In this document: one piece after another, positions 7,665 to 34,391 of the stretch
How the letters are laid out: the number at the start of each line of letters is the position of its first letter
Position numbering within the stretch: position 1 is the first letter of the stretch
Source of the DNA: Oligoflexia bacterium
GTDB lineage: Bacteria; Bdellovibrionota; UBA1018
Direction: 5' to 3'
DNA length: 64,000 nt
Assembly (NCBI GenBank): GCA_903881565.1
Contig: CAIRTR010000126.1
Location: 15,385 to 79,384 of the forward strand
Translations under genes and position numbers: made by a program
Notes under the pieces: generated by a model
The model's input: the letters and a program-made list of their open reading frames with translations, nothing else
What the model was told of the DNA's origin: nothing
Databases searched by the model: none

Positions 7665-7679
7665 CGAAAGGTCACTGCC

Positions 7680-8620: not shown

Positions 8621-8638
8621 CCTAACCCACTCCTGACA
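8621..8638 (+). promoter_or_regulatory. Candidate Pho box: 7-bp direct repeats with a 4-bp spacer (CCTAACC-cact-CCTGACA), 37-54 nt upstream of the PHP gene start
   Basis: The same 7-4-7 architecture and near-identical half-sites recur upstream of pstS and in the ppk/PAP2 divergent region. The E. coli Pho box has the same 7-4-7 layout (CTGTCAT-N4-CTGTCAT). Confidence 0.45.
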
Positions 8639-8674
8639 CACAAATCCCAAAATTTCCCCTAATCTCTAATAATC

Positions 8675-9487
8675 ATGAAGCAGCTGGTGCTTGGAGATTT
8701 TCACATCCATTCGACGTTCAGTGACGGCAAACTCACGATCCCTGAGATTGTCGACCTCTACGGTTCATTAGGTTTTGGCGCAATTGCAATCACGGACCAC
8801 CTCTGCGAAAGCCATTCGATGATCGGAAAAGCAGCCCGCTACATTGGCCACACGCTGACGCCTGCGAGCTTTCCTCTTTATATTGAAATCCTCAAATCCG
8901 AAGCCGACCGAGCCATGAAGCAATACCAGATGGTGGTCATCCCAGGAGTTGAGATCTCCAAGAACTCCATCTCCAATCACCGATCCGCCCACATTTTGGC
9001 GCTTGGAATCACGCAGTGGATTTCTGCCGACAAAGACGCTTTAGAGATTGTCCGAGAAATTAAATCCCTCGGCGGGCTATCCGTAGCCGCCCATCCTGTT
9101 TGGACTCGAAAACGTGAGAAACAATCCTATCACCTCTGGGACCGAAGAGAAGAACTTAAATCAGAGATCGACGCTTGGGAAGTCGCCAGTGGCCCCTACT
9201 TCTTTGATGAGGTTCTCCACAGTGGGCTTCCCATGATCGCAAGCAGCGATCTTCATCACAGAAATCAAATCACGTCTTGGAAATCCGTCCTTCATTGCAA
9301 GCGGACCCAAGCCGATGTGTTCATGGCAATCCGTAATCAGGAGCTGTCATTTCAATTCTATCAGGAGGTGAACAATGACTACCCTCGCTCTACTAATGCT
9401 CCTCATTTGGTTCGTAGCCCTAACTCTGACACTTTACGGAACAGCCCTCACAATCAGGGCGATGAATTGCCAACCCCCGCACCTTGA
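8675..9487 (+). CDS. PHP-domain (polymerase/histidinol-phosphatase-like) metal-dependent phosphoesterase
   Basis: 270 aa. N-terminal GDFHIHSTFSDG and ITDH motifs are typical of PHP. The 3' end overlaps the next gene by about 113 nt in another frame. Confidence 0.7.
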   Translation: MKQLVLGDFHIHSTFSDGKLTIPEIVDLYGSLGFGAIAITDHLCESHSMIGKAARYIGHTLTPASFPLYIEILKSEADRAMKQYQMVVIPGVEISKNSISNHRSAHILALGITQWISADKDALEIVREIKSLGGLSVAAHPVWTRKREKQSYHLWDRREELKSEIDAWEVASGPYFFDEVLHSGLPMIASSDLHHRNQITSWKSVLHCKRTQADVFMAIRNQELSFQFYQEVNNDYPRSTNAPHLVRSPNSDTLRNSPHNQGDELPTPAP

Positions 9488-18835: not shown

Positions 18836-20626
18836 TTAACCCAACGCCCCCGGAAACCGACACACAAAACTCGCCCCCTGCCCCACCGTACTCTCAACCC
18901 ACACGGCGCCGCCGTGGCGTTGCATGATGTGTTTGACAATGGCAAGCCCTAGTCCCGTTCCCCCTAACTCACGAGAGCGGGCTTTATCGACTCGGTAAAA
19001 GCGCTCAAAAAGCCTTTCATGATGCTCTGGAGGGATCCCGGGTCCTGAATCAGAAACCTTCAATAGGACTTCATTTGAAGGCGTCCTCTCCCAACTCAAA
19101 CTAATCTGTCCTCCCGAGGGAGTGTATTTGGCGGCGTTGTCCAGGAGATTAACCAGCACTTGCTCCAAGCGAGTGGCATCAGCGTAAACATTTGAAACAC
19201 CGGCGTGTAAAATGACATTTTGCTTTTTAGTTTCAAAAGCACCGCTTAACTGTTTAAGCACCCGGGCACTGATTTCTTCAGTACTCAATTCAATCCTCTG
19301 CAAATTATCCGCATTGGCATCTAAAGAAGACAGATCTAGCAGATCATTGATCAGACTCATCAGGCGCGCCGTATTGCGACTGATCACTTCAACAAATTCC
19401 TTGGAGATCGCCCGCCCCTGCCCAATGTCCTGCTCCAGGGTGTCCGTATAACCCTTAATCGCCGTCAGAGGAGTACGAAGTTCATGAGAAACGTTAGCCA
19501 CAAAATCGATTCGAATTTGTTCAGCCTTTTTTAAGGCCGTCACATCATGAAACACCCCAACGGCGCCGTAGACTCCTCCAATTGTACTTCTACGCAGGGG
19601 CGCCACCGACAGTGAGAAGAATTTTTGCCCTTCACTATGAGCAAAAGCATGCGCGCTGATCGCGGTATTCTTCCCCCCTTTCAAAGCCGCCCGAAAGGCA
19701 TCAAGTACTTCAGGATCCCGAAAAAGTTCCCAAAGCCTGGCGTTGCCAGTCCGCAGCACCGCCTGCCCACCAAAAAGCACGGCAAAACGGCTATTATAAA
19801 AAAGCGGCGTTCCCTCCAAATCGACAGCAATGATCGCATCCGATATGGCACTCATGAGAGTCGCTTGCTCTTCGCGCTCGCGATTGAGGTTCTCAGCTTT
19901 GGCTTCTAGATCACGTCGAATATCCTCAAGCGATGAATCCAGTTCAGATAATTCCCCAAAGGAGTCTTCTTCAAACTCCTGCTCACTTGCTTGATGATGA
20001 GCTACATTCTCAGCTTTGAGCAAAATGCGCCCCAACGGTAATGCCAATTTTCGCCCCGACCATAGCGCAAAGCCACCCAGAACGAGCGCAATCAAAACCA
20101 AAAATCCAATCAACGACGAATCCAAAATCTGAAGGCTCGCAATGAGATTTGAAAGTGGGATGGCTCCTCTTAGAAACACGCCCTTGCTTTTTACATTCAG
20201 CGCTCCATAAAGCATGTTCTCGCTTAGGGTCTCACTATAGCGAACGCTCTGCCCAAATCCAGATGTAGAACCAAGCGCAGCCTGTACTTCAGTCCTACCC
20301 AGATGATTCTCCATGGTTTGCACTTGATGGTGCGAATCACAAAGGACTAAGCCACTTGACGCAATAAGTGTGAGACGAAAAGAAGAATCATGAGAATGAG
20401 TCGCGCACCATGACGGGGTAACATTCGCGGGCAAATCCCCGGGTAGATCTTGAGTCAAACTCTTCAAAGTGACATGAAGCTGGGACTCGACTTGAGCGAT
20501 AAACTGCTGCTTGTAAAAATAGCGGGCAGCAACCCCCGAAGCGGCAACCGCCACAAGAACGAGAAGGGCTTGAATCAGGACAATTCGTGAAAACAGCCGC
20601 CAGGGAAATCTCTTTGGAATTGTCAT
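18836..20626 (-). CDS. phoR: phosphate-regulon sensor histidine kinase
   Basis: 596 aa. Two TM helices, a PAS-like region, the HisKA H-box SHELRTPLTAI and HATPase_c motifs. It sits immediately downstream of phoB. Confidence 0.8.
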   Translation of the reverse strand: MTIPKRFPWRLFSRIVLIQALLVLVAVAASGVAARYFYKQQFIAQVESQLHVTLKSLTQDLPGDLPANVTPSWCATHSHDSSFRLTLIASSGLVLCDSHHQVQTMENHLGRTEVQAALGSTSGFGQSVRYSETLSENMLYGALNVKSKGVFLRGAIPLSNLIASLQILDSSLIGFLVLIALVLGGFALWSGRKLALPLGRILLKAENVAHHQASEQEFEEDSFGELSELDSSLEDIRRDLEAKAENLNREREEQATLMSAISDAIIAVDLEGTPLFYNSRFAVLFGGQAVLRTGNARLWELFRDPEVLDAFRAALKGGKNTAISAHAFAHSEGQKFFSLSVAPLRRSTIGGVYGAVGVFHDVTALKKAEQIRIDFVANVSHELRTPLTAIKGYTDTLEQDIGQGRAISKEFVEVISRNTARLMSLINDLLDLSSLDANADNLQRIELSTEEISARVLKQLSGAFETKKQNVILHAGVSNVYADATRLEQVLVNLLDNAAKYTPSGGQISLSWERTPSNEVLLKVSDSGPGIPPEHHERLFERFYRVDKARSRELGGTGLGLAIVKHIMQRHGGAVWVESTVGQGASFVCRFPGALG

Positions 20627-20633
20627 ATGACGC

Positions 20634-21317
20634 TCACTCGGCCTTCACGCGATAGCCCACGCCTCGAATCGTCTCAATGATTTCGGCACACACTCCCAGT
20701 TTTTTTCGCAAACCAAAAACATGGGTATCCACGGTACGATCCGTCACACTGACTCCCTCGCCCTGCACGTGTTCAATTAGTTTATCGCGCGAAAGGACCC
20801 GACCCCGATTCTCTAGGAGCGCCACAAGAAGCTTAAATTCAGACGTCGTGAGCTGAATTTCTTCAGTCGCACACCATACTTTATGCTCGCCTAAACTCAC
20901 TTTAAGGTCTCCAATACTAAATCCCGCAGCCGTAGATCCCCTAGCGGCCATGGAGACCTCCTGAGTCCTTCTTAGCAGCGCCTTTACTCGCGCCAGAAAC
21001 ACAGCGATTTCAAATGGCTTGGTGACATAATCATCCGCACCCGACTCAAGGCCTCGAACAATATCAGCCGAATCCGCGCGTGCAGTGACCATGAGAATAG
21101 GCAGCTTTCCTGAAAAGGCCTTGCAGAGTTCCAATCCCGAGATTCCGGGAAGCATCCAATCTAATATAGCCAGTTCAAATTTGCCTTCAGAAAAAAGCTT
21201 AAGGCCCAACTCCCCGTTTTCGGCCCCCACTGCATCAAAGCCCTCACGCTTAAGATGCATGAGCATCAGCGTTCGAATGTCCGCTTCGTCTTCGACAACC
21301 AGAATTCGAGCGTTCAT
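20634..21317 (-). CDS. phoB: phosphate-regulon response regulator of the OmpR/PhoB family
   Basis: 227 aa. Receiver domain (ILVVEDE...D) plus a winged-helix domain. Located between phoU and phoR. Confidence 0.85.
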   Translation of the reverse strand: MNARILVVEDEADIRTLMLMHLKREGFDAVGAENGELGLKLFSEGKFELAILDWMLPGISGLELCKAFSGKLPILMVTARADSADIVRGLESGADDYVTKPFEIAVFLARVKALLRRTQEVSMAARGSTAAGFSIGDLKVSLGEHKVWCATEEIQLTTSEFKLLVALLENRGRVLSRDKLIEHVQGEGVSVTDRTVDTHVFGLRKKLGVCAEIIETIRGVGYRVKAE

Positions 21318-22006
21318 TTTGACTCCAACGCCTTTTTGATTGTCTGCATACTCCCCGAATGCCTAATATCTTCGCCTGTGATCGCAAAAACCACGTCCTC
21401 TGCAATATTGGTCGCGTGATCCCCAAGGCGCTCTAAGTTTCTCGCGATCAAGATGAGGGTTAGGCCCTGCTCAATCATTTCGGGTTGATCCTTCAAATGC
21501 TCCAGTACATCCCTGAAAATCTTATTCTTAAGAGCATCCACTTTATCATCACGACTCAGAACCTCGCGTGCCAGCCCCTCATCGGTCTTTACAAATGAAT
21601 CAATTGCAGCCCTTACCATGACACGCACTTCTTCAGCCATCACCGGTAAATCAATGAGCGGCTTAAGAGGCAGACCTCTTAAATAGCGATCACTATTATA
21701 AGCGATATTTTCAGCCTGATCGCCCATCCGCTCTAAATCCGTGTTGATCTTGATAATTGCAACAATTAGCCTGAGATCGGCAGCCAGGGGCTGCTGAAGG
21801 GCCAATAGCTTCAGACAGGAATTATCCACCGCTTTATGAGCTAGATTCACCTTCTTTTCCATCTCATGAACATGCGCAATCTTGGTCAGATCCCGTTTCT
21901 GAAGCGCCTGAGTCGCATCATCAATCGCGCGCTCCACCAGCCCCGCCATCGCCACCAACTGTTCTTTTAACTCTCTTAAGGAAACATCAAAATGCCGTTC
22001 CATCAC
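21314..22006 (-). CDS. phoU: phosphate signalling complex protein PhoU
   Basis: 230 aa. Two PhoU repeats, each with a DxxERxxD motif ([30 protein letters not shown]). Confidence 0.85.
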
Positions 22007-22761
22007 CCAAACCTCCCCGTAATGTATCGCTCCGTTCTTTGGTCCTTGGGAGCAGTAAATAGTTCTGACGTCTCACCGTACTCAATCATTTCACCTAAAA
22101 GAAAAAAGGCCGTCTTATCTGAAATCCGCGCGGCCTGCTGCATATTATGTGTCACAATCACGATCGTGACTGTTTTCTTAAGCTCTGTCATGAGTTCTTC
22201 GATCTTCGCCGTCGAAATCGGATCCAGCGCGCTCGTGGGCTCATCCATAAGCAAAACAGAGGGCTCCACGGCCAAAGCGCGCGCAATGCAGAGTCGCTGT
22301 TGCTGTCCCCCTGAGAGACTCGTGCCTTGTGAGTTTAACTTATCCTTCACTTCTTCCCATAGGGCCGCAAGCTTTAGGCTGCGCTCAACGGTCTCACGAA
22401 GGATGGCCCCCCGTCTCACTCCTGCCAATTTTAAACCAATTGCAACGTTATCAAAGATTGAGAGCGAGGGAAAAGGATTGGGTTTTTGAAAGACCATCCC
22501 GATCTTGCGACGAATGGCCACGGGATCAACATCGGAGGCATAAATATCATGCCCTTGAAGCAAGACTTTACCCGTGGCTGAGGCCTCCGCCACTTCTTCA
22601 TGCAATCGATTGAGGCATCGAATAAACGTTGATTTGCCACAACCCGAAGGCCCGATGATCGCCGACACCGTGAATTCATCAAAATCCATTTGAATGTTTT
22701 TCAGAACCTGAGTTGACCCAAATGAAGCACTGAGATTTTGAGTTGAAAGCAAAGAATACAT
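22003..22761 (-). CDS. pstB: phosphate ABC transporter ATP-binding protein
   Basis: 252 aa. Walker [13 protein letters not shown] signature LSGGQQQRL, Walker B LLMDEP. Confidence 0.9.
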
Positions 22762-23657
22762 TAGTTTCCACCCTGTTTTTTTGAATTCCCGCCAGAATTA
22801 AATACCACTCGAGTCAACAAATTCATAGCAAACACGAGCATCACCAGGAGCAGGGCTCCCGCCCATGCCTGCCGATGCCAATCGTCATAAGGACTAATGG
22901 CGTACGTGTAGATTTGAACAGGGAGAGATGCAATCGGTTGATCCAATCCGCTTTGCCAAAAGCGATTATTAAAAGCGGTAAATAAAAGAGGTGCGGTTTC
23001 ACCCGAGACTCTCGCAATTGAGAGCATGATGCCCGTCGTGATCGGCCCGCGACTCCCCTTGAGAATAATCCACAAAATAACTTTCCACCGAGGGAGCCCC
23101 AAAGCCAAGCCCGCCTCCCGAATGTGCTCGGGGATCATTCTAAGAAGCTCCTCAGTCGTCCGACAAACCGTCGGGATCATCAAGATCCCAAGAGCCAGGC
23201 CTCCCGCAACGGCTGAGAATCTCCTCATGGTTATAACCACAAGCGCGTAAACAAAAAGCCCCACAATAATTGAAGGAATACTCGAAAGCATGTCCGCACT
23301 AAAGCGCACAACGCCAGCGAACCTGCCCCGCCCTTGCTTTCCCCCGTATTCGGACAAATACAACGCAACCGATACGCCCCAGGGGATCCCAATCAATGAG
23401 GCCAACGCGACCAACGTACAAGTGCCCAAAAGTGCATTGGCCATCCCACCGCCGATCTCACCCACAGGCTTCGGAACCGCGGTAAAAAACTCCCAATTAA
23501 GCGCAGAATACCCTTGCGCCACGACATAGCCAAAAACACTAAAGAGGGGAAAAATCGCGAGGGTAGCAGCCAACACCAAAAGCCCACACATCAAGGCATT
23601 GATGGCTTTTCTTTTTCGGTAACTGCGAAAAATGTAGTCTGCAAAATGCCGCTGCAT
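22761..23657 (-). CDS. pstA: phosphate ABC transporter permease PstA
   Basis: 298 aa. Polytopic membrane protein with the ABC permease EAA-like loop. Position in the pst operon supports the call. Confidence 0.85.
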
Positions 23658-24622
23658 TATTTAGCGCCTCCAGGCGAATTGGAAGGAGCGCCCCAACGAA
23701 AGCCCCGAGAAATAAATAATCGAGCAAGGCTGTTGATGACGAACGTCACCGCAAAAAGCAAAAGCCCGACTTCAACAAGTGCTGCAACATGAACGTCACT
23801 GGTCGCCTCGGCATACTCATTGGCGATGATACTGGCCATCGTCGATCCAGGCGCAAACAAAGAGGCGGAAACCTCATGGCGATTGCCAATAAGCATCGTG
23901 ACCGCCATCGTCTCCCCCAACGCTCGTCCCAAACCTAAAATCACGGCGCCGATGATTCCGCGCCTTGCACTTTGTAAAACAGATAATCGCATCATCTCCC
24001 AGCGAGTCGAGCCCAGAGCCAATGCCGCCTCACGCTGCACGCGAGGGATTGCATTGAAGATCTCGCGCGAAATACTTGAGATCGTCGGCGTAATCATGAT
24101 GGCCAGAATAATCCCCGCAGCCAACATCCCTACCCCGTAAGGAGCGCCCTGAAAAAATGGCAAAAAACCCATAGTTTTGGCCAAAAAAGGCTCCACCGTC
24201 GTCCTGAGCCAAGGCGCCAGGACGAAGATTCCCCATAAGCCATAAACCACACTCGGAATCGCAGCCAGCATCTCGACAAGAAATCCCACAACCCGCCCCA
24301 CTCGCGTGGGGGCAATCTCGGTCAGAAACAAGGCGACGCCCACACTCAAAGGCGTTGAGATGAGTATAGCAATAAAAGAAGAAACCACGGTTCCGTAGAC
24401 CACGGGAAGCGCGCCATAAACGTCATTAACCGGATCCCAAACAGAGGTCGTGACAAAACTCCAGCCCTGCTTGTGAATCACGGGCAAAGCGTTGCGGAAA
24501 AGATAGTAGGCTATAGAAACGAGAAGCAAAACTAAGGCGACCGAGGGCACCTTCAAAATGAAGGCAAACACTCGATCGCCTAAGTGAACTTCACGTTTTT
24601 TTCTATTTAGCTTGAATCTCAT
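23657..24622 (-). CDS. pstC: phosphate ABC transporter permease PstC
   Basis: 321 aa membrane permease. The ORF start overlaps the pstS 3' end by about 20 nt, so the true start may lie slightly downstream. Confidence 0.8.
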   Translation of the reverse strand: MRFKLNRKKREVHLGDRVFAFILKVPSVALVLLLVSIAYYLFRNALPVIHKQGWSFVTTSVWDPVNDVYGALPVVYGTVVSSFIAILISTPLSVGVALFLTEIAPTRVGRVVGFLVEMLAAIPSVVYGLWGIFVLAPWLRTTVEPFLAKTMGFLPFFQGAPYGVGMLAAGIILAIMITPTISSISREIFNAIPRVQREAALALGSTRWEMMRLSVLQSARRGIIGAVILGLGRALGETMAVTMLIGNRHEVSASLFAPGSTMASIIANEYAEATSDVHVAALVEVGLLLFAVTFVINSLARLFISRGFRWGAPSNSPGGAK

Positions 24623-25631
24623 TAATCTTGGCCTCTACCTTGCTCAGCATGGCTTTGGGCAGTGGCGCGTAGAACAGAGGTTCAGCACTCGCTTGTCCCT
24701 CTTTGATAGCCCAATGCAGAAATTTCACAATTTTTGCCCCTTTATCCTTAAACTGCTCTGGAGCCATTGTCTTATAGACCAGCAAATAAGTGAAGCCGCT
24801 TATTGGATAAGAATCCTTGCCCTCAGCGTCGGTAATGGAAACGCGGAAATCAGCAGGCATAGATTTCAATGATCCTGCTGCAGCAGCGCTCACACTTTTC
24901 GTATTAGGTTCCACCACACTTCCGGCCTTGTTCTTCACCCAAGCGTAAGTGAGCTGATTGTTCTTGGCGTAAATCAACTCGACGTATCCAATCGCACCGG
25001 GCGTTTGTTTTACGAGACCCGTGACGCCTTCATTGCCTTTTCCCCCTAAACCCACAGGCCAATTAACGGCCGTTCCCGCTCCCACTTTGGTTTTCCATTC
25101 GGGACTGACTTTCGCTAGATAATCGGTGAAAATTCCAGAAGTGCCACTCCCATCCGAGCGATGCACGACGAGGACCGCGTCCTCTGGCAGTTTCAAGCCG
25201 GGATTAAGTGTCACAAGCTTAGGGTCGTTCCACTTGGTGATTTTTCCCAAAAATATTTCTGAAACGATCTCAGCACTCAACTTAAGCCCCGTTGCAAGTC
25301 CCGGGACGTTATAAGTCAAAACGACGGCGCCCAAGACCGTTGGAATATGAACAACCGGAATCGAAGACTTGCTCAACTGCTCATCCGTCATCGGAGAATC
25401 GGTTGCACCAAAATCCACGGTTTTTTCCAAAAACTGGCGAATGCCCCCACCGCTACCGATAGACTGATAATTGATCTGGGTTTCAGGATCGATCTTTTGA
25501 TAATCCGAGAACCATTTTGAATACAGAGGATAGGGAAAGGTTGCCCCCGCGCCGTTGATCATATTTGCCGCAAAGGCGGATGTGCCCAGCGAGAAAGCGA
25601 GTGTCAGAACCAATGCACTAAATTTTTTCAT
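24603..25631 (-). CDS. pstS: phosphate-binding periplasmic protein PstS
   Basis: 342 aa with a signal peptide. PBP superfamily (GAGATFPYPLYSKW, SDGSGTSG). Confidence 0.85.
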   Translation of the reverse strand: MKKFSALVLTLAFSLGTSAFAANMINGAGATFPYPLYSKWFSDYQKIDPETQINYQSIGSGGGIRQFLEKTVDFGATDSPMTDEQLSKSSIPVVHIPTVLGAVVLTYNVPGLATGLKLSAEIVSEIFLGKITKWNDPKLVTLNPGLKLPEDAVLVVHRSDGSGTSGIFTDYLAKVSPEWKTKVGAGTAVNWPVGLGGKGNEGVTGLVKQTPGAIGYVELIYAKNNQLTYAWVKNKAGSVVEPNTKSVSAAAAGSLKSMPADFRVSITDAEGKDSYPISGFTYLLVYKTMAPEQFKDKGAKIVKFLHWAIKEGQASAEPLFYAPLPKAMLSKVEAKINEIQAK

Positions 25632-25705: not shown

Positions 25706-26155
25706 CTAATTCGGGTATTTTCCCTCAATATAGTCTCGAAGCATCCGGTTTTCATGTGCGTGTTCATGGATCAAGGATTTGATCACATCGCCGATGGAGA
25801 CCAACCCCACCATCACGCCGCTCTGCATGACAGGGAGGTGGCGAACTCGGTTCTTCGTCATGGTCGACATAACATAAGAGAGATCGTCACTTGGAAATGC
25901 AATAATCAGATCCTTACTCATCACATCAGCGACCAGCAAACTCTCAAGCTTTGAGCCCCCTTTTTGGGTCGCCCGAAGGATATCCCGTTCGGTGACGATT
26001 CCGACCGGGTACTCTCCTGATTTTTCTGCCACGACCACCAATGCGCCGATATTGCGTTTTATAAGCATCTCGATGGCATCAGCCACTCGTGCTCCCGATA
26101 GAATCGTAACGACATCGCTTCCCTTGGTTTTTAAGAGATCTTTGACATGAGGCAT
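25706..26155 (-). CDS. CBS-domain pair protein
   Basis: 149 aa. Two CBS motifs (the HLPV and GLVSIGDV regions). Confidence 0.7.
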   Translation of the reverse strand: MPHVKDLLKTKGSDVVTILSGARVADAIEMLIKRNIGALVVVAEKSGEYPVGIVTERDILRATQKGGSKLESLLVADVMSKDLIIAFPSDDLSYVMSTMTKNRVRHLPVMQSGVMVGLVSIGDVIKSLIHEHAHENRMLRDYIEGKYPN

Positions 26156-26199: not shown

Positions 26200-27660
26200 C
26201 TAACGAGCGAGGGGCTGATACATCGCCAAGGCTTTAAGCCTGCGCGAACTATGCTCTACGATCGGCTCAATGGGCTCATGAAGCGCGCGCCCTTTTAGAT
26301 GAGCGCGCTCCGGCAACCATTGTTTCAAATAGACGCCATCACGATCAAATTTTCGACTCTGAAGAGTCGGGTTAAAGATTCGAAAATAAGGCTGAGGATC
26401 ACACCCAGTCGAGGCCGCCCATTGCCAACCCCCGTTATTGGCGGCCAAATCTCCATCCAAAAGCTGCTCCATAAAATACCGCTCGCCCCAACGCCAATCA
26501 ATGAGCAGGTCTTTGGTCAGAAACGAAGCGACAATCATCCGCACCCGATTATGCATCCAACCCGTTTGTCTAAGCTGCCGCATTCCCGCATCGACGATGG
26601 GGTAGCCAGTGCGGCCTTCTTTCCAGGCTTCAAAAAGATCCTCTCGATTCTCCCATTTGATGTTGCGGTATTTTTCCAAAAAAGCCTGATTCTCAACCCA
26701 GGGGCAATGCCACAGGATGTGAATGTAAAACTCACGCCAGACGAGTTGTTTTAAGAATTGGGTAGCGCCCATCTTTTGGGGAACCGCTTTAAAACGGGCA
26801 TTTTCGAGTCCGAGCATCGCAATCACCTGAGCAGACGTGAGCGATCCGTTCTTCAAATACATACTCAGCTGTGACGTTCCCGAGACACCCGGAAAATCTC
26901 GCTGGTCACTATAATCATCAAGCTCGTCATCAAACTCATCAAGCAAGGCAAGAGCTGCTTTAGAGCCCGCTTTGGGGATCGGAACACTCACCTGCTTTGA
27001 ATTCTTTGCTCTAAAATGCTCAAGTCGATCAGCATAAATGTCCGTTACTCCCAAAAGATCACGCCAACGGAGTCCAAAATGCGTTTGCTTAGCTTCAGCC
27101 GGGCAAACCCGCCCCCGAATCTCCCTACGCCCCAACAGCTCAAACCACTTGCGCGCAAACGGAGAATACACCTGATAAAAGGACTTTTCACCACTCTCCT
27201 TTTTCAACTCATGAGGTTCTATGACTAAGTGATCCCGCTCCGTGTGAACCTCCACGCCCCAACCGTGCACCAACATTTCGCTAACCCCCTCATCACGCGC
27301 ACGCGCAAAGGGTTCATAATCACGATTGAAACTCACGACCGAAGGCTTGCCCTTCTTTGATTTTTTAAGCTGCGTGAGCAGCGCCGAAAAACCCTTTTTT
27401 GGAATTTCATCCAAGACGAGCAAATCGCCCCCCAAGGCGCGCAACTCCTCACGCAAGGCCTCCAGCGTATTTAGGAGAAACGCAAATCGATTGGGCGAAA
27501 AATCGGGCCGCGATAAAAATGTCGAATCAACAAAAAAGATCCCCACGACTTTTCCTCCATTGCGTGCGAGGTTCCACTCCAAGGCGGGATTGCCCAAGAC
27601 TCTTAAATCACGACGAAACCAATGAATGCCATAGCCACCCATAACCGGCCCCCCCTCCAT
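26200..27660 (-). CDS. phrB: deoxyribodipyrimidine photolyase (CPD photolyase / cryptochrome family)
   Basis: 486 aa. N-terminal photolyase alpha/beta domain (IHWFRRDLR) and the FAD-binding signature DGDLAANNGGWQWAASTG. The start abuts the stop of the upstream ybgA-like gene. Confidence 0.85.
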   Translation of the reverse strand: MEGGPVMGGYGIHWFRRDLRVLGNPALEWNLARNGGKVVGIFFVDSTFLSRPDFSPNRFAFLLNTLEALREELRALGGDLLVLDEIPKKGFSALLTQLKKSKKGKPSVVSFNRDYEPFARARDEGVSEMLVHGWGVEVHTERDHLVIEPHELKKESGEKSFYQVYSPFARKWFELLGRREIRGRVCPAEAKQTHFGLRWRDLLGVTDIYADRLEHFRAKNSKQVSVPIPKAGSKAALALLDEFDDELDDYSDQRDFPGVSGTSQLSMYLKNGSLTSAQVIAMLGLENARFKAVPQKMGATQFLKQLVWREFYIHILWHCPWVENQAFLEKYRNIKWENREDLFEAWKEGRTGYPIVDAGMRQLRQTGWMHNRVRMIVASFLTKDLLIDWRWGERYFMEQLLDGDLAANNGGWQWAASTGCDPQPYFRIFNPTLQSRKFDRDGVYLKQWLPERAHLKGRALHEPIEPIVEHSSRRLKALAMYQPLAR

Positions 27661-28599
27661 CTACAAACGAATATGCGCGCCCAGTGCCCGGGGATAGGGC
27701 GCAAAAAAGAGCTGCTCCTGCAGATACGCGATCTCAAATTTTTGAATCAGGTGATTCGCAAGAGTCAGTGGCGCAATAAAAGGCAATTCCCCTTTGAGAT
27801 ACTCCTTAATTGACTCTCGCAACTGCTTGCGATCCGTCTCATCGGCCTTGCCCCGCAAATATCCCATAGCATGCTCAAGCACGTTGGTTCGGGTCTTGGC
27901 GGTAGGCATAACCGCCAGAGCCTCCATGAAAAGCACCGAATACTTTTCCAAGACCTCCCGCACGGATAGACCTTCGGGATTTGCAACAATCCGACCCAAG
28001 CGAGAGTAGTGACGAGGACTATGCTCCATCAAGATCAGCTTGTGCTTTTTGTGCAGGTCCTGAATGGCACTCAACTTTATGCGCAGGGGAGCTTCGGGAG
28101 TAAGCGCCCTGAGGCGAGAATAGGCAAAAATCTGATTTAAAAAATTCTCACGCTGCTCCGAATCCATCAGTCGCCCTTCTTCAATCATCGGCAGAAGAGG
28201 ATAGGATTCACACATCGCTTTTGCAAAAAAGCCTTGCCCCGTCTTATTCGGAATGCCTTTGGCCGAATAATCCTTCACCCGCTCCAACCCACAGCTGGGC
28301 GAGTCCTTTTTTAAAATAAACCCATCTAGGCCTGCGGCAGTCTGAGCGAGTTTAATAAAGCACGATGTCGCTTTTTCACTCAAATCCAACTTCGTACTCG
28401 GTTGCACAAGCCTTCCCTGATTCAATCGGAGCGTGGGACGCGGAACCCCCAATCCCAAAGAAACCTCGGGACAAAAAGGAACAAGCTTTGCGTGCTTGCC
28501 CAAAATATCCGTAATCCAAGGCTGACGCTTGTGATCGCCGTTGAAGCGTACGGCATGACCTAAGAGACAAGCGCTCACTCCGACTTGAGGTTTACTCAT
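27661..28599 (-). CDS. DUF523 + DUF1722 fusion protein (YbgA-like, TudS-type Fe-S family)
   Basis: 312 aa. The N-terminus VGVSACLLG...FCPEV matches the DUF523 Cys pattern. E. coli ybgA is likewise co-operonic with phr. Confidence 0.7.
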   Translation of the reverse strand: MSKPQVGVSACLLGHAVRFNGDHKRQPWITDILGKHAKLVPFCPEVSLGLGVPRPTLRLNQGRLVQPSTKLDLSEKATSCFIKLAQTAAGLDGFILKKDSPSCGLERVKDYSAKGIPNKTGQGFFAKAMCESYPLLPMIEEGRLMDSEQRENFLNQIFAYSRLRALTPEAPLRIKLSAIQDLHKKHKLILMEHSPRHYSRLGRIVANPEGLSVREVLEKYSVLFMEALAVMPTAKTRTNVLEHAMGYLRGKADETDRKQLRESIKEYLKGELPFIAPLTLANHLIQKFEIAYLQEQLFFAPYPRALGAHIRL

Positions 28600-29966
28600 C
28601 TCTTGAAAATCTCCGCGACTTTGTTTCGCCTATAGGAGAAAATCCGATTGATATCTCTCCTTACAAAATACCCCAGCGCGGCTTTCCCGAGCAGCCCACC
28701 CGGAATCTGATATTCGACGTCGTCATGAACGAGCGTTCCCCCGGGAACTTCTTCAAAACGATGCGTGTGGTGCCACTTTGAGTAAGGGCCCTTGAGCTGC
28801 GTATCCATGAATTCGTGCCCGGGGGCCCATCTTTCGATGCGAGAGCGCCAATGCAGGGGCAATCCATGAATGCGCAGCCGGTAATCGATTTCAGTCTGAT
28901 CTTGGATTTGGAGCGTGGAGACTTTCAAAATATGAAAATCCAGCCAAGGCGGTGTCAGCTCCTCCAGATTCTTAGCCTCACTGAAAAACTCAAAAACCTC
29001 ACTCAAAGGTCGGGCCACAAATTGAGAAGCCGAGAACTTTTCTTCATTAGGGTTATCCACCGAGTATATCTCAGCCAATGCCGAATCGAGAGTGGGATAC
29101 AAAAATGTAAAACCGCAACCCAGAGTGCGCTCCGGCATCACCTTTTGGCTCGCCAGCAGAAGCTGTGACATTTCGCCCAGGGCTACACGAAGAATTGAAG
29201 CGGGCGTTTTCAAAATAGGAAAAAGCATCGAAGGAACCCCGATGGCGCGCGCATAGGCTTTGGTAAAATCCTTGTTCGTCACGGGCTCGGGCGAAACCAA
29301 GTTAAACGCGCCTCTTATTTCGTTTGTAAGCGCATAACTAAAGAAACGAACTTCATCCTCCAGATGAATCCAGCTCATCCATTGATGGCCAGATCCCAAA
29401 ACCACGGGCTGCATCTTCTCCAAGGCGCCCCCACCCTGCCCCAGCACCACGCCGGTCCTTAACAAAACCACGCGAACTCCCAAGCGTTCAGCTTCCAGCG
29501 TCTGGGCCTCCCACTGTGCAGTCACATCGGCTAAGAATCCATCTCCCGAGGCGCTCAGCTCTGTAAGCACCTCGTCGCCGCGATCACCGTAAAGTCCGAT
29601 GGCTGAAGCACATAGCATGGTCTTGGGACGAGTCTCTGGGCTGAGCAAAGCCAAGGCTTCAACGATCTGCCGGGTCCCCACCACGCGCGAATCCAAAATT
29701 CTTTTCTTAACCGGCTTACTCCAGCGTCGAGCGGCGATCGGCTCGCCTGCTAGATGAATGATGGCGTCAACGCCTTTGAGCATTTCACTAAGCTCATTGA
29801 TCGGGGTTTTTCCAGGTATCCAAAGATGCGCCTTGCACGGCAAGTCTTTTGCACTCGCGCTCTCGGGGTTTCGCACAAGCGCCGTGAGCTGATGCCCCTC
29901 GCGCACGAGTTCCAGAATGGCAGCTTGGCCGATAAAACCTGTGGCACCCGTGATTACGCATTTCAT
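28596..29966 (-). CDS. NAD-dependent epimerase/dehydratase of the YfcH type (TIGR01777-like) with a C-terminal SRPBCC-like extension
   Basis: 456 aa. Begins with the Rossmann motif ITGATGFIG. The C-terminal 150 aa or so, beyond the usual DUF1731 end, resemble a cyclase/dehydrase (SRPBCC) fold. This is a low-confidence domain call. Confidence 0.65.
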   Translation of the reverse strand: MKCVITGATGFIGQAAILELVREGHQLTALVRNPESASAKDLPCKAHLWIPGKTPINELSEMLKGVDAIIHLAGEPIAARRWSKPVKKRILDSRVVGTRQIVEALALLSPETRPKTMLCASAIGLYGDRGDEVLTELSASGDGFLADVTAQWEAQTLEAERLGVRVVLLRTGVVLGQGGGALEKMQPVVLGSGHQWMSWIHLEDEVRFFSYALTNEIRGAFNLVSPEPVTNKDFTKAYARAIGVPSMLFPILKTPASILRVALGEMSQLLLASQKVMPERTLGCGFTFLYPTLDSALAEIYSVDNPNEEKFSASQFVARPLSEVFEFFSEAKNLEELTPPWLDFHILKVSTLQIQDQTEIDYRLRIHGLPLHWRSRIERWAPGHEFMDTQLKGPYSKWHHTHRFEEVPGGTLVHDDVEYQIPGGLLGKAALGYFVRRDINRIFSYRRNKVAEIFKR

Positions 29967-29982
29967 AAAAACCTCCTGTTTT

Positions 29983-30035
29983 ATCTAATCATAGTCTAAC
30001 ACCTTGTCTCTTATTTGTCTAACTTCTGTCACATT
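29983..30035 (+). promoter_or_regulatory. Five tandem direct repeats with 11-bp periodicity (core TGTCT/TGTCA) in the divergent regulator/photolyase-operon intergenic region. Candidate CarH-type operator.
   Basis: tATCTaatca tAGTCTaacacc tTGTCTctta tTTGTCTaac tTCTGTCAcat. Cores fall at 29983, 29994, 30006, 30017 and 30028. The reverse complement of TGTCTA is TAGACA, which fits the T-nn-ACA half-site recalled for CarH operators. Confidence 0.45.
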
Positions 30036-30041
30036 AGAAGT

Positions 30042-30069
30042 TTGACAAAATCGACACAAATGATATGAT
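30042..30069 (+). promoter_or_regulatory. sigma70-like promoter TTGACA-16 nt-TATGAT. It would give a leaderless or near-leaderless mRNA for the carH-like gene, whose ATG is 8 nt after the -10.
   Basis: Consensus -35 at 30042-30047 and -10 at 30064-30069, read directly. The operator repeats abut the -35. Confidence 0.5.
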
Positions 30070-30077
30070 CTCAGTGC

Positions 30078-31079
30078 ATGCAAAAGCGACTCACTGCCTC
30101 TCCCCTGGCCCAGGGCCTCTCCGTCAAAGCCGTCTCCCTTTTTACAGGACTTACGGCGCATACCCTCAGGGCCTGGGAAAGAAGGTATGCACTCATTAAG
30201 CCACGGCGAACCCCAACGGGCCGCCGGATCTACACGATGGCAGATGTCGAAAAACTAAAACTCTTAGGCAGCCTCACCCAGCAAGGTCATTCCATCGGAA
30301 ATCTCGTGCAGCATTCACTCAAGGATCTCGAGAAACTCGCAAGGCAAACACAAGACGCGAGCCGCGAGCTCAACGCAGGAATCATCGCCGAGCACGCCAC
30401 TCATTCAGACACCGCCGCCTCTGTCAGCGTCATTATTGGCGCTCTACGTTCCATGAACCTTGAAGCACTGGATCGCCACATTCTCAAAGCGCGACTCTCC
30501 GCGCCCGCCCGAGTTTTTGCGCTGGAGATCATCAGCCCCCTGCTCAGCGAAGTGGGCGCGCTTGTCGCACGTCATGAACTCGACATCGCGCAAGAGCATG
30601 GACTCTCCGTGATTCTCAGAACTCACTTAGGAGAAGTCCTGGCGCAGATGCAAAGAACCACACAAGGCGAGAATCTCGAATCCAAATCGCTTCCCAGGTT
30701 TTTGTTCTCAACGCCCGAAGGTGACCTTCATGAATTTGGAATCCTCTTAGCCGCGATCCTCGCAGGCAGCCGAGGATTAAGCTTCAGCTACTTAGGCCCC
30801 AATATGCCTGCCGAAAACCTGGCAAAAGCTGCGGCAACGACCGGGGCAAAGATTATCGTCCTAGGCTCTGTTCCTGCTGATGACCGCAGACTTGCCATGC
30901 CCCTTCGAAAATATATCGAAGTCCTCTCCCAAAGTCTCTCGAAGGTCGCTTATGGCACTTCAATTTGGATCGGGGGATCCTGCAGCTTTGATCTCCAAAA
31001 GGAAAAATTAAAATGCCCCACAAAACAGCTGAAATCGCTGAGCGATTTTGACCAGGAGCTTGAAAAGCTCACCGAGTAA
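30078..31079 (+). CDS. MerR-family HTH regulator with a C-terminal cobalamin-binding domain. Candidate CarH/LitR-type B12-dependent photoreceptor.
   Basis: 333 aa. N-terminal MerR HTH (LSVKAVSLFTGLTAHTLRAWERRY). The C-terminus has the canonical B12-binding DxHxxG motif (DLHEFG) followed by SxL (SFSYL) and GG (IWIGG) motifs. Confidence 0.65.
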   Translation: MQKRLTASPLAQGLSVKAVSLFTGLTAHTLRAWERRYALIKPRRTPTGRRIYTMADVEKLKLLGSLTQQGHSIGNLVQHSLKDLEKLARQTQDASRELNAGIIAEHATHSDTAASVSVIIGALRSMNLEALDRHILKARLSAPARVFALEIISPLLSEVGALVARHELDIAQEHGLSVILRTHLGEVLAQMQRTTQGENLESKSLPRFLFSTPEGDLHEFGILLAAILAGSRGLSFSYLGPNMPAENLAKAAATTGAKIIVLGSVPADDRRLAMPLRKYIEVLSQSLSKVAYGTSIWIGGSCSFDLQKEKLKCPTKQLKSLSDFDQELEKLTE

Positions 31080-32982
31080 AATCCACGTCAAAGGTTTCCT
31101 GAAGCCGCTTGCGCACCATATAGTTCACCACAAACGCCATACACGTCGGAGTAAAAGCCTTGATCCCGGCAACGGCCTCGCCCTCTTGCCCGGTCCGAAT
31201 GGCGCGAGCGACCGCAGAAGAATCCGCGATTGTGATCACTTTAGGGACCATTCCAGCCTTCTTACTCTCCGTCATGCGTTTGAAAAACAAATCCATGCGA
31301 TCCCTGATGAGGCCAAACTCTTTTGTCGTAACAGCGATATTCGGATCTGATTCGGTATTCTGCGCATGAGATCCATGAGGACCATATTCACGATCATGGC
31401 TCTTGGAGCGCTCCCAGGAGATCGGCTCCACCAATCCCCCATGTCCCTCTGAAACAAAGACATCAAGATCAATATCCAGGAGATACCCCTTCTTCTTGTC
31501 TTGCGCAGGAAAATAGTCCGCAAGCGGAGCGGGAGGAGTTGATTTCTGCCTCACTTCAAACATCTGCTCACCGCTGGAGTTCTTAAATGTTTCCACCCGC
31601 TCCTCATTGTTGCAATCCACGATCTGAAAGCGCGAGGGCGCTAGAACCTTCACCGTTCCCGCCTGAAGTTCATCCGGCGTAAATGTAGGAATATTCCAAT
31701 CCCCCTGTGGTGCGTCTTTTGCGGCCATTTCAAACCCCAACTCTTCGCTCCCTTTTGTTCCGCGCTCAATAAAATTAAAAGCAAGTGCGGCAGGCTTGCT
31801 CGTCCCATCTGCCTGCTTCACATACTGAGTTCGAGGCAACTCCTTGGACCAGGGGGGCATGCACATGATAAAATCACCACTCGAAACTCCGGTAGCCTGG
31901 GACGCCGCAAGGGGTTGGGCAATGTGATGTACCGACTTTCGAATCTGCATTTCGAGTTCCGCTCGAATCTGCAATTCGGGTTGGGCGGCAATACGAGCCA
32001 CGAGACTTTGTCTTTCAGGAGCCGTCAAGACCGCGCTCGCATTGATTTTCTCAACGAGAAACCGAGACAACTCCCCTTCGGACTTAAGCAGCGCCTGATG
32101 TGTCTCCTTGAAATCCAGCACATGAGAAGACCAATGCCCATGCGTGTGGGTATGGACGTCCCCCATATCCGTATGAGTGTCTGCATGAAAAACCGTAAGT
32201 CCTTCGGCCGGTACGTTGCCCTTTTGCTGCTCCTTCGCCCAGTAGTAGTAAGATGCATTGTGATCATTCACGTTATAGACCGGAATCTTTTTTGACGAGG
32301 CACTCAGATTAGCGCGATTTTCGCCATCGTAGAACGACGACCACACCGAATAGGCGTTCCGCAAGACCGCACAGTCTTCGTCCGTGAGATTGGGCTTTTT
32401 CCAATAGTGATCAAACAGATCTTCGAAAAAACCGGCGAACGTTCCTTTTATTCGCGAGTTACGAAGTGGCGACGAGGTCGAAAGGCACTGTGTGACTTTT
32501 TCAAGCCCCCGAAGAAGGGCTTGGTTTTTTGCATCTTTTGCCAGATCGCGGGTCGCCACGGCCAGGTCCAGCTTAAAAACACAGAACTCGGAGTCGCGCG
32601 CGGATCCAAAATATTTGTCGTAGACGCCCTGTAGTTGCTGTTTAATCTCGAGGAAATCTTTTTGATCTTTTACCGCCGTCTCAGAAACCAGCTGCTCCTG
32701 CTGGCTTTTCAAATATTTAAGAGTGTGCTTGGCATTTTCCATGCGATCTTTATGAGCTTCAATCACTTTGGGATCTTCTAGGCAGGGAATTCTAGCCCCG
32801 TGCACGCTTTCGAAACTCTTAAGCTCACTTGCGATGGTGTCGCGATACGCCCGAGAATTGAAGACGGAGATTTCGCGAGCGTTTGGATCATAACCCAGGG
32901 GCTCTGAGGCCAAGGAAAAAGACTCGCTGGCTACGAGCGAAAATGTCGAAAGTGTGATGACAAGCGGTGCGACAAATCTCAT
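31069..32982 (-). CDS. secreted hypothetical protein, possibly arginase/deacetylase-fold (UPF0489-like)
   Basis: 637 aa with a signal peptide. Has a His-rich cluster FHADTHTDMGDVHTHTHGH and a later DIDLDVF, resembling arginase-fold metal-site motifs (DAHxD, SxDxDxxDP). Weak assignment. Confidence 0.4.
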   Translation of the reverse strand: MRFVAPLVITLSTFSLVASESFSLASEPLGYDPNAREISVFNSRAYRDTIASELKSFESVHGARIPCLEDPKVIEAHKDRMENAKHTLKYLKSQQEQLVSETAVKDQKDFLEIKQQLQGVYDKYFGSARDSEFCVFKLDLAVATRDLAKDAKNQALLRGLEKVTQCLSTSSPLRNSRIKGTFAGFFEDLFDHYWKKPNLTDEDCAVLRNAYSVWSSFYDGENRANLSASSKKIPVYNVNDHNASYYYWAKEQQKGNVPAEGLTVFHADTHTDMGDVHTHTHGHWSSHVLDFKETHQALLKSEGELSRFLVEKINASAVLTAPERQSLVARIAAQPELQIRAELEMQIRKSVHHIAQPLAASQATGVSSGDFIMCMPPWSKELPRTQYVKQADGTSKPAALAFNFIERGTKGSEELGFEMAAKDAPQGDWNIPTFTPDELQAGTVKVLAPSRFQIVDCNNEERVETFKNSSGEQMFEVRQKSTPPAPLADYFPAQDKKKGYLLDIDLDVFVSEGHGGLVEPISWERSKSHDREYGPHGSHAQNTESDPNIAVTTKEFGLIRDRMDLFFKRMTESKKAGMVPKVITIADSSAVARAIRTGQEGEAVAGIKAFTPTCMAFVVNYMVRKRLQETFDVDFTR

Positions 32983-33551: not shown

Positions 33552-34391
33552 CTAGAAGCCGTCCCCGTCATCATCAAAGTCGCGCTTAATCGAATCAATC
33601 AGCGAATCCACGGACTCGCCCTCGACGTCAAAGTCTTCTGCGTTTTCATCCAGATCAAGATCGTGAATGACTTTGGAAAACTCTTTTTCCGAGGCCAAAT
33701 CTCCACGAATCGCTTCGATATAACGATCCGGATATTTTGCGACAAGCTCTTCGATATACTGATTGAGTTTGCCTTCTTTTAGAATCAGTTCTTTACGCTT
33801 AATCTTTTTCCAATTCTTGATGTAATGAAGTCGGCAATATCCGTGCGTGGTCGCCAATCCTTCACAAGCCACTTCACGGCAAACACTCTCGTCAGACGCG
33901 TAATCTGCGCCAGATCTTTTGCCCGTCTTAAAGCCTAATGCGCTTTTCCCTTTTCCCTTGGCTTGAACCCTCAAAAGGGGCGCAGCTGGCAAAACAGGAG
34001 CAACCACAACGGCCTTTTTGGTCGGTTTTTCTGAAGCTTTAACTTTTTCGACAACCGCGGCCTTCGGAGTAGGCACTGCCTTACCTGTCGCAAGTTTAGC
34101 AATCTTTGCATCTGCTTTTGGCGCTTTTGGCGCCTTCGCAACTTCTTTAATCGGCTTGGCCGGTTTTTTCTTTCCACCGAAAAGTGCGTCTTTGATCGAA
34201 CTTAAAGTGGAGGGCTTTTCTTTAACCTTCGAGACTTTCGGGGCCTTTGCGGCTTTAGCGGCCTTCACGGGCAACGCTTTTTTAGCGGGAGCACTCTTGT
34301 GTTGAGCGCCCTTCTTGAGGGGCTTTGCAGCCTTGGCTCCCATATGAGCTGTTTTTTTCTTTTGAGTCGCACCTTTTTTCGAAGCCGGCAT
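33552..34391 (-). CDS. histone-H1-like lysine/alanine/proline-rich basic protein with a Cys-containing motif and an acidic C-terminal tail
   Basis: 279 aa. The N-terminal 170 aa or so is low-complexity K/A/P-rich (AKKALPVKAAKAAKAPKV...), like the eukaryotic H1 tail or the Hc1/AlgP proteins. This is followed by C-x4-C-x9-C-x2-H (CREVACEGLATTHGYCRLH) and a DE-rich tail. Confidence 0.5.
   Translation of the reverse strand: MPASKKGATQKKKTAHMGAKAAKPLKKGAQHKSAPAKKALPVKAAKAAKAPKVSKVKEKPSTLSSIKDALFGGKKKPAKPIKEVAKAPKAPKADAKIAKLATGKAVPTPKAAVVEKVKASEKPTKKAVVVAPVLPAAPLLRVQAKGKGKSALGFKTGKRSGADYASDESVCREVACEGLATTHGYCRLHYIKNWKKIKRKELILKEGKLNQYIEELVAKYPDRYIEAIRGDLASEKEFSKVIHDLDLDENAEDFDVEGESVDSLIDSIKRDFDDDGDGF

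Follow-up and report, generated by a model that had tools for sequence, protein, structure and literature searches.

The question raised by the locus studied here is whether a repressor of the CarH/LitR type can use vitamin B12 as a light sensor when its cobalamin domain lacks the tryptophan by which such sensors are recognized. The locus lies in a stretch of 64,000 nucleotides (nt) from an Oligoflexia bacterium (contig CAIRTR010000126.1, positions 15,385 to 79,384 of the forward strand, originating from an ENA metagenome; the whole stretch, 64 kb, is called the window below). In it, a regulator gene is transcribed away from an operon for a photolyase and two further proteins, and an earlier note on this DNA had read the arrangement as a circuit running from light through adenosylcobalamin (AdoB12, AdoCbl) to derepression and photorepair. 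We lean towards a light-relieved repressor switch of this type, built on a variant cobalamin domain. It is very probable that the regulator represses the divergent operon through tandem repeats in the intergenic region, and a response of the system to light, direct or indirect, is likely, while protein-bound adenosylcobalamin is the sensor that we cautiously favour. The four genes of the locus are the following:

30078..31079, plus strand, regulator gene, 333 amino acids (aa), MerR helix-turn-helix (HTH) and cobalamin-binding domain
28596..29966, minus strand, YfcH/SDR39U1 epimerase-SRPBCC fusion, 456 aa
27661..28599, minus strand, RudS (TudS + DUF1722), 312 aa
26200..27660, minus strand, class I-type cyclobutane pyrimidine dimer (CPD) photolyase, 486 aa; in a public gene call the start is Met7 (nt 27642)

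All four open reading frames (ORFs), the regulator and the three minus-strand genes, were found exactly where the earlier note had placed them, and the divergent layout is borne out by their coordinates, which leave an intergenic gap of 111 bp (29967-30077).

The predicted fold of the regulator is that of CarH. The MerR HTH claimed previously was recovered with PF13411 (E 5.9e-14, Pfam), its recognition helix LRAWERRY being residues 30-37, and the NCBIfam CarH model matched with E 5e-30. In a phmmer search against PDB, TtCarH/LitR matched residues 15-271 with E about 2e-23. The AlphaFold2 model (predicted local distance difference test, pLDDT, 93; alignment of 102 homologues) has the domains in this order:

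30078..31079, plus strand, regulator domains: winged helix at residues ~15-75, long linker helix, four-helix bundle at 109-198, five-stranded Rossmann domain at 208-318

When this model was compared with PDB by Foldseek, all of the top 50 matches were CarH, LitR or CtMerR, with a template modelling (TM) value of 0.77-0.80 over the cobalamin domain and a root-mean-square deviation of about 3.6 Å, and the best structures were those of TtCarH (5c8d/5c8e/5c8f). The earlier note had made its proposal depend on a B12-binding fold in the C-terminal domain, and by NCBIfam, the TtCarH match and Foldseek the domain is, as modelled, a B12-binding fold of the CarH type. The architecture of CarH/LitR photoreceptors claimed there is correct in domain order and fold, while membership in that group was overstated, as Val163 stands in place of the Trp in Wx9EH and Gly263 aligns with the Ser in SxV/T. 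The best relatives of the regulator come from metagenome-assembled genomes (MAGs) of Bacteriovoracaceae, Bdellovibrionales and Oligoflexia, with a top identity of 55% among the matches found, and they carry generic database names ('MerR family').

CarH homologues have been defined by two motifs together, ExHx2G-x41-SxV/T-x22-27-GG and Wx9EH (PMC8156234; PMC9304148). The corresponding codons of the regulator gene are these:

30723..30740, plus strand, DxHxxG motif codons (D216-L-H218-E-F-G221), His218 being the putative lower axial cobalt ligand
30564..30599, plus strand, Vx9EH codons (V163...E173-H174), replacing Wx9EH of TtCarH (W131, E141, H142), with A164 for H132

Of the canonical DxHxxG...SxL...GG series described in the earlier note, DLHEFG (residues 216-221) and the GG pair (299-300) stood, whereas the Ser position of SxL is Gly263, and is so across the clade described below. 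In the gapless alignment to TtCarH, the regulator reads VGALVARHELDIAQEH where TtCarH has VGEAWHRGEIGVAEEH, so that Trp131 corresponds to Val163 and His132 to Ala164, and Glu141 and His142 are kept. Also kept are GxxxP (G240-P-N-M-P244) and the Gly at the position of TtCarH Gly192. The signature of light-responsive cobalamin domains derived with SignatureFinder consists of GxxW, EH, GxxH and GxxxP (PMC11796333); three of these four elements are present (E173-H174, G215-D-L-H218 and G240...P244), and G160-A-L-V163 fails the remaining one, as it reads GxxV. His218 is invariant both in the 102 and in the 120 aligned homologues. In TtCarH, Trp131 packs sterically against the adenosyl group, brings about the upright conformation that dimers require and is crucial for AdoCbl-dependent assembly, and after photolysis it moves into the vacated space and displaces the helix bundle (PMC8221060). 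Since Trp131 is replaced by Val163, this relay cannot work alike in the regulator. Phe220 (in HEFG) was considered as compensation for the lost Trp; Phe is also found there in 7 of the 18 homologues that have the Trp (Trp-type sequences).

Val is the prevailing residue in the Trp column. Among the 120 best homologues the column holds Val in 85 and Trp in 18, the remainder having Ser, Cys, Thr, Ile or Gly, and in the same 120 sequences Glu141 (120/120), His142 (112/120) and His177 (120/120, all in TtCarH numbering) are conserved. Genes of the Val type were seen in Bdellovibrionota-like genomes (loci L001-L009 and L011 of those compared), and Trp at that column was seen in Gemmatimonadota, Bacteroidota, Chloroflexota and others, the loci having been typed at this position by tblastn. 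A metagenome scan returned mostly Trp-type relatives, one search pattern being the common DNA-binding helix, and added only eight new Val-type loci. When 1.84 billion cluster representatives were searched with a profile of 50 Val-type sequences, the 126 new representatives among the best 150 matches (E <= 2e-79) included 91 with Val, 8 with Ile and none with Trp. The Val-type set amounts to at least about 100 clusters at 50% identity. The 85 Val-type homologues are 30-55% identical, RxWERRY of the recognition helix is kept in 83-84 of them, and the cobalamin-domain columns conserved in at least 95% are P154, G160, V163, E173, H174, S177, T212, H218, E219, G240, N242, P244, G299 and G300. Most of these fall on published AdoCbl-contact elements, namely GxxV for GxxW, EH, the ligand His, GxxxP and GG (PMC11796333). 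From this pattern we infer that purifying selection has acted on the binding of a corrinoid, and in particular on those residues that would hold the adenosyl ribose. Certain substitutions co-vary with Val (Leu217, Asn242, Gly263 and Asp216), and because they are grouped near the pocket for the upper ligand and near the dimer interface, the alignment suggests that the cobalamin pocket has been remodelled rather than decayed.

Some observations were made on the Trp column outside the Val-type clade. Across the wider family of MerR proteins with a cobalamin-binding domain (MerR-CBD) the column is more variable than described in the CarH reviews consulted: homologues P0081-P0101 have Ser at the Trp position and P0092/96/102/106/117 have Cys, with ligand-motif variants of their own (DLHEFN, QWHELG). 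In loci L034, L039, L042, L048, L049, L056, L062 and L075 (Lewinellaceae / Saprospiraceae / Chitinophagales; regulator at ~6001-6680) the CarH-like MerR proteins have Tyr or Phe in the Trp column, EA/ES/ET for EH, and 'ERQ' without His for the ExH ligand motif; judged by their residues, these Bacteroidota loci look like a branch that has lost all B12 ligands. Locus L010, from a Gemmatimonadota MAG, carries two Trp-type CarH paralogues about 2.6 kb apart (2963-9534), with a divergent operon for a group-1/3-like sigma factor, SnoaL_2 and photolyase upstream.

CarH operators are built of three or four tandem 11-bp repeats, nnnnTnnACAn, over the -35 or the -10; such operators may include pseudo-repeats, and function has been demonstrated even where just one repeat is perfect (PMC9304148). 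In the window, the 111-bp spacer holds two back-to-back promoters together with repeats of this kind:

30042..30069, plus strand, predicted regulator promoter: -35 TTGACA (30042-47), 16-nt spacer, -10 TATGAT (30064-69), 11 of 12 positions matching
29993..30021, minus strand, predicted operon promoter: -35 TAGACA (30021..30016), 17-nt spacer, TG-extended -10 TAGACT (29998..29993), 9 of 12 positions matching
29981..30025, minus strand, four tandem 11-bp repeats forming the operator array: TAGACA as the one perfect TnnACA, and the pseudo-repeats GAGACA, TAGACT and TAGATA, spaced 11/12/11
30025..30015, minus strand, operator repeat 1, AAGTTAGACAA, matrix score 15.8
30014..30004, minus strand, operator repeat 2, ATAAGAGACAA, matrix score 7.8
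30002..29992, minus strand, operator repeat 3, GTGTTAGACTA, matrix score 8.0
29991..29981, minus strand, operator repeat 4, TGATTAGATAA, matrix score 7.3
30038..30048, plus strand, CarH-type 11-bp repeat, AAGTTTGACAA, overlapping the -35 of the regulator promoter; an inverted copy of the best operon-side repeat

The near-consensus regulator promoter reported in the earlier note was thus confirmed, and the operon-side TAGACA-17-TAGACT had been missed there. Both hexamers of the operon promoter sit within operator repeats and are covered by the array, and the inverted copy lies on the -35 of the regulator; tandem repeats of the nnnnTnnACAn type are accordingly found over both the -35 and the -10. 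The regulator-side repeat is contained in a 24-nt inverted repeat (30004-27 / 30036-59), and TCGACA, the second site on the plus strand, lies out of phase at a distance of 9 bp from the first. With the ATG of the regulator at 30078, its leader would be 0-4 nt long, and since no Shine-Dalgarno sequence and no other in-frame start were found before the HTH, it is plausible, as had been claimed, that the mRNA is leaderless or near-leaderless. Scans of the whole window for Rfam families and tRNAs were empty, with no B12 riboswitch.

The repeats were evaluated with a position matrix built from the operator sites of relatives, the window being excluded. Of about 128,000 window positions, the two that scored highest were 30013-30026 (minus strand, GAAGTTAGACAAAT) and 30037-30050 (plus strand, GAAGTTTGACAAAA). 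When sites were chained at 10-12-bp steps, the four-repeat chain reached a total of 38.9 and the best chain elsewhere in the window 18.8, and in 2000 dinucleotide-preserving shuffles (mean -1.4, maximum 23.1) the value of 38.9 was never reached. Of the five direct repeats, 11-12 bp apart, described previously, four are therefore real and non-random, whereas the fifth, GTGACA at 30033..30028, is off the motif. It was also correct that TAGACA fits the T-nn-ACA half-site of CarH, as it matches the published nnnnTnnACAn, although this applies in full to one repeat only. A search of the window for TNGACA-N5-TNGACA as an exact pattern found nothing, and TTAGACAA alone was not enriched there (2 matches vs 1.4 expected). 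Upstream of the Val-type orthologues, TAGACA/TTGACA is enriched 5.5-fold with a modal same-strand spacing of 11 bp. The usual layout in these orthologues is two diverging pairs, each starting with a TTGACA that doubles as the -35, and L082, L090 and L099 instead have 3-4 tandem repeats. The flanking bases (AAGTT-, -AA) are conserved outside the hexamer. As the matrix core resembles the sigma-70 -35 hexamer, it is the phased chains and the conserved flanks, not single matches, that carry the argument. Isolated matrix matches were also seen at 11589-11602 (plus strand, 14.7), 55208-55221 (minus strand, 13.9) and 26564-26577 (minus strand, 12.1), one of them inside the photolyase gene; they have no phased partners and are probably chance matches or ordinary -35 elements.

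The link to light is supported by the genes beside the regulator in relatives. The synteny set comprises 19 Val-type loci with a flank of 3 kb or more, and in 15 of them one or more genes of a photoprotection panel lie next to the regulator; among the Trp-type loci the figure is 36 of 71, mainly crtI and photolyase. As the panel was partly drawn from the same loci, these counts describe rather than test. The Val-type neighbours are epimerase(-SRPBCC) in 7 loci, a furan fatty acid-like set of CMAS / amine-oxidase / DUF1365 / DUF1295 in 5-6, SnoaL_2/DUF2358 in 4, ferrochelatase in 3, photolyase in 2 and crtE/crtI-like genes in 1. These families match the light-induced regulons of LitR proteins in Pseudomonas (phrB, ufaM and others; PMC9758184), and RudS and photolyase have been reported in LitR-controlled light operons (PMC11417400). 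Among the loci compared, RudS stands beside a Val-type regulator only in the window. The genomic context points to light stress, not to B12 metabolism.

Two of these neighbours deserve separate mention. The epimerase-SRPBCC gene (28596-29966 in the window; also at L001-L004, L009, L082, L086, L093 and L099) is the gene most often divergent from Val-type regulators, and it is in Bdellovibrionota that it is fused to SRPBCC. In the Pedobacter loci L014, L020, L023, L027, L035 and L038, an epimerase lies between a Trp-type regulator and the photolyase, and there is thus a cross-phylum link of the YfcH/SDR39U1-type epimerase to light regulons. In the Oligoflexales-like loci L005-L008 (~7290-8400), ferrochelatase (hemH) follows the Val-type regulator, separated from it in L007 by a small DUF1636-like gene, and in L005 a 724-aa protein with cyclic-nucleotide-binding domains is encoded upstream; this hints at light control of porphyrin handling in these relatives.

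The switch that we propose would work as follows. In the dark, the regulator would carry a corrinoid, most probably adenosylcobalamin, to which His218 would be the lower ligand while Glu173 and His174 held the adenosyl ribose; the MerR domains of the oligomer would bind the TnnACA repeats, covering the -35 and -10 of the operon and the regulator's own -35, and both promoters would be shut. Light from near-ultraviolet to green would break the Co-C bond, the oligomer would lose its affinity for DNA and both promoters would fire. The products would be the CPD photolyase for DNA repair, RudS removing 4-thiouridine (s4U), which is sensitive to ultraviolet A (UVA), from tRNA, the epimerase-SRPBCC protein and more repressor. 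The coupling of photolysis to disassembly would be wired differently from that of TtCarH, Trp131, His132 and Arg176-Asp201 being Val, Ala and Leu/Asn, and it would have to differ from canonical CarH because the relay residues are replaced. The path from light through AdoB12 to derepression in the earlier note is plausible in these terms, and the sequence does not secure it.

Several results weigh against this reading. In the regulator, Wx9EH is incomplete, with EH there and the Trp gone; the Ser column of SxV/T is Gly263 ('GSV', with Ser264 one residue on), as it is Gly in 77 of the 85 clade members; and the Arg176-Asp201 salt bridge of the head-to-tail TtCarH dimer is replaced by Leu217/Asn242. 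The absence of Trp131 would count here because the loss of this Trp has been used to explain the B12 independence of CarA: according to reviews by the laboratory that defined CarH, it largely accounts for the ability of this paralogue to work without B12 (PMC8156234; PMC9304148). CarA also retains the His and EH, so that conservation alone is no proof of B12 binding. The regulator did not reach the cut-off of the NCBIfam CarH equivalog NF052513 (104.7 bits vs 400), and the Pfam B12 domains on which the earlier note would have relied matched only below their gathering thresholds (PF02310 21.2 bits vs 32.1; PF02607 20.7 vs 23). Among the genes annotated within ~10 kb on either side, no B12 uptake or adenosylation gene was seen. 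On the operator side, Tandem Repeats Finder (TRF) reported no repeat in 29900-30150 at a minimum score of 30, the repeats being too degenerate for a generic finder, and the operator signal consequently depends on the motif. Furthermore, only one repeat is a perfect TnnACA, and the spacing is 11/12/11 and not uniformly 11 bp. In the literature searched, no experiment on any member of the clade was found.

It could be argued from these points that the regulator is a B12-independent repressor like CarA, with the fold kept, the cofactor not needed, the repeats bound constitutively, and release in the light brought about by an antirepressor such as CarS or by a partner photoreceptor of the kind of the short LOV proteins, which control class II LitR. 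Loss of the Trp is the published marker of CarA, which keeps the His motif and EH as well (PMC9304148; PMC8156234), the salt bridge and the SxV Ser are likewise lost, and class II LitR shows that family members can serve as effectors of another photoreceptor (PMC9758184). Unlike in CarA, however, there is no deletion around position 163, and His218, Glu173, His174, GxxxP and GG are invariant over a deep clade with the divergence described above, which is hard to explain without a cofactor. CarA itself shows that the His and EH may persist for a time without function. A partner for such a repressor was not apparent either, as no LOV, BLUF or small antirepressor-like gene was called within 10 kb on either side (a CarS-like gene was not searched by profile) and the neighbours vary among relatives, leaving no conserved candidate except epimerase-SRPBCC. 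Taken together, we regard B12 independence as unlikely.

It appears still more improbable that the regulator binds a corrinoid with a different upper ligand or logic, that is, the methyl, hydroxo or another form accommodated in a pocket enlarged by Val for Trp, or the photoproduct, as AerR does, with the state or availability of the corrinoid as the signal. The pocket is remodelled at four positions near the upper ligand and dimer interface (W131V, H132A, R176L and D201N); methylcobalamin (MeCbl) binds TtCarH with no assembly for want of bulk against Trp131 (PMC8221060), and a smaller cap could alter the preference. Yet conservation in the Val-type set is 100% for Glu173 and His174, whose counterparts in CarH and CtMerR form hydrogen bonds with the adenosyl group, the genomic context is again that of light stress, and position 132 has no conserved His that could act as the upper ligand. 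A MerR-type activator is very improbable, as is a regulator unrelated to the operon with the repeats as mere AT-rich promoter elements like TTGACA. The promoter spacers of 16-17 nt are optimal and fit repression, while MerR-activated promoters have spacers of 19-20 nt; MerR-style activation is disfavoured by this and was rejected. The likeness of the TTGACA/TAGACA core to the sigma-70 -35 means that part of the matrix signal may come from promoters, and the TRF result is in line with such a view, but phased chains of 3-5 sites occurred nowhere else in the 64 kb and in none of the shuffles, the conserved flanks lie outside the promoter-like core and the 11-bp phasing recurs in relatives.

Set beside known systems, the light-relieved repressor that we prefer is a variant CarH-like switch, a large and overlooked natural variant and not a new principle. 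With TtCarH/LitR (5C8D, 5C8E, 5C8F, 3WHP) it shares the domain order (MerR winged HTH, four-helix bundle, Rossmann domain), RxWERRY, the His motif, EH, GxxxP, GG and Gly192, as well as a tandem 11-bp TnnACA operator over the -35 and, as predicted for the window, autoregulation and control of photoprotection. It differs from TtCarH in Trp131 (Val), His132 (Ala), Arg176 (Leu), Asp201 (Asn) and Ser222 (Gly), is only ~25% identical, and has a longer linker (333 vs ~285 aa in all); its target is a photolyase/RudS operon instead of carotenoid genes, and its operator combines one perfect repeat and three pseudo-repeats on the operon side with an inverted repeat on the regulator side. A strict CarH homologue was rejected, as the regulator departs from the published definition at the Trp of Wx9EH and, as aligned, at the Ser of the classic motif. 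CarA of M. xanthus likewise lacks the Trp, keeps the EH pair and the classic His motif and binds CarH-type operators, but there a five-residue deletion removed the Trp with four neighbours, where the regulator has a one-for-one Val (PMC9304148). CarA is moreover a recent branch within Cystobacterineae and needs the CarS antirepressor and a singlet-oxygen pathway, no counterpart of which was seen here, whereas the Val-type clade is deep and large; CarA proper was rejected for want of the deletion and because the lineage is Bdellovibrionota. CtMerR of Chloracidobacterium thermophilum (8JBS/8JBT) is also a MerR-CBD protein divergent from TtCarH that has no His132 equivalent and is nevertheless light-responsive, and GxxH, EH and GxxxP are common to both. 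It keeps the Trp (W156) of GxxW where the window protein has GxxV, which is why signature-based mining would miss the latter. Class II LitR (PplR1/PmlR) of Pseudomonas, in phrB-litR-rudS, resembles the window in being a repressor beside photolyase and RudS with a light-induced photoprotection output; these proteins have a four-helix bundle only, probably do not bind B12 and serve short LOV photoreceptors as their effectors (PMC9758184). Class II LitR was rejected, since the Rossmann domain of the regulator is complete, with five strands and the His ligand. In the literature searched, no paper links Bdellovibrio to CarH or to a MerR-controlled photolyase.

Tentatively, the Vx9EH proteins may form a phylum-wide class of B12 photoreceptors in Bdellovibrionota, all annotated only as MerR regulators, that would sense light without the Trp relay, the bis-His switch and the Arg-Asp salt bridge, although we hold this possibility at somewhat short of even. 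If it is true, Co-C photolysis would be coupled to the release of DNA in a new way, and surveys by motif, which use Trp131 to decide which proteins count as B12 photoreceptors, would miss a sizeable share of them, including those of predatory bacteria that may obtain the corrinoid from their prey. The Val-type clade is a natural test of the CarH model, as it keeps every other cofactor contact, the operator grammar and the photoprotection neighbours, and yet has Val. Either outcome would be informative: if the Trp relay is dispensable or replaced by another arrangement, this bears on the mechanism, on CarH-based optogenetic tools and on light-responsive materials, and in the other case a deep lineage would have turned its B12 domain to another use with the light-related targets kept.

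The output of the switch appears to be wider than photorepair. The rudS product matched PF04463 (TudS, 2-thiouracil desulfurase; 6.5e-34) and PF08349 (DUF1722; 6.9e-36), and a fusion of this kind was characterised in 2024 as RudS, a tRNA 4-thiouridine desulfidase (PMC11417400). The cluster cysteines C11, C43 and C103 and the catalytic E45, R54, S100 and S102 are all present, as matched by eye to C17, C49, C114, E51, R60, S111 and S113 of RudS_KT, which have been reported as essential (PMC11417400), so that TudS is fused to DUF1722 with its full set of residues and the gene is predicted from these residues to encode RudS. With this identity, the output would be extended to the protection of tRNA from UVA. 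The earlier note had described a YbgA-like DUF523/DUF1722 protein in a ybgA-phr pairing, which is a fair analogy, as in E. coli a DUF1722 gene also stands immediately upstream of the photolyase, but understates the gene: YbgA consists only of DUF1722 and leaves the s4U content of tRNA unchanged (PMC11417400), whereas the window has the full TudS + DUF1722 protein under a CarH-like operator. The module would place an s4U eraser under such an operator, which fits the proposed light-induced de-modification response. The photolyase, also claimed before, was upheld as class I-type by its best PDB matches (1owl/1tez, E about 3e-91; E. coli 1dnp, E 1e-86); it has the DNA_photolyase and FAD_binding_7 domains of a class I CPD enzyme, and its NCBIfam equivalog scores are below the cut-offs, so that they assign no type of antenna chromophore. 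The YfcH-type epimerase with an extra SRPBCC-like domain was found as described (TIGR01777 at 283 bits, above the cut-off; DUF1731; C-terminal Polyketide_cyc/SRPBCC domain). The start of rudS overlaps the epimerase stop by 4 nt and rudS abuts the photolyase gene, and because of this the three genes look translationally coupled. Two further features belong to the operon or its possible end:

29972..29977, minus strand, ribosome-binding site AGGAGG of the epimerase gene, 5 nt before its ATG, read from the sequence
25706..26155, minus strand, CBS-pair protein, 44-nt gap after the photolyase, possible last operon gene

No terminator-like site was found in a search between phr and the CBS gene, and the CBS-pair gene is possibly co-transcribed with the photolyase operon. 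Directly downstream of the CBS-pair gene on the same strand, a full block for phosphate uptake and regulation (pstSCAB, phoU, a phoB-like response regulator and a PAS histidine kinase) extends over 18836-25631. On the other side of the locus, the 3' end of the regulator gene overlaps a convergent gene by 11 nt, from which the regulator is taken to be monocistronic. The 637-aa product of that gene (31069-32982, minus strand) has a weak N-terminal-like match to UPF0489 / peptide-arginase (FlmR/OhkR). Further along, a 279-aa protein (33552-34391, minus strand), with no Pfam family on record, has a histone-H1-like N-terminal half, long and rich in Lys, Ala and Pro, and ends in an acidic tail.

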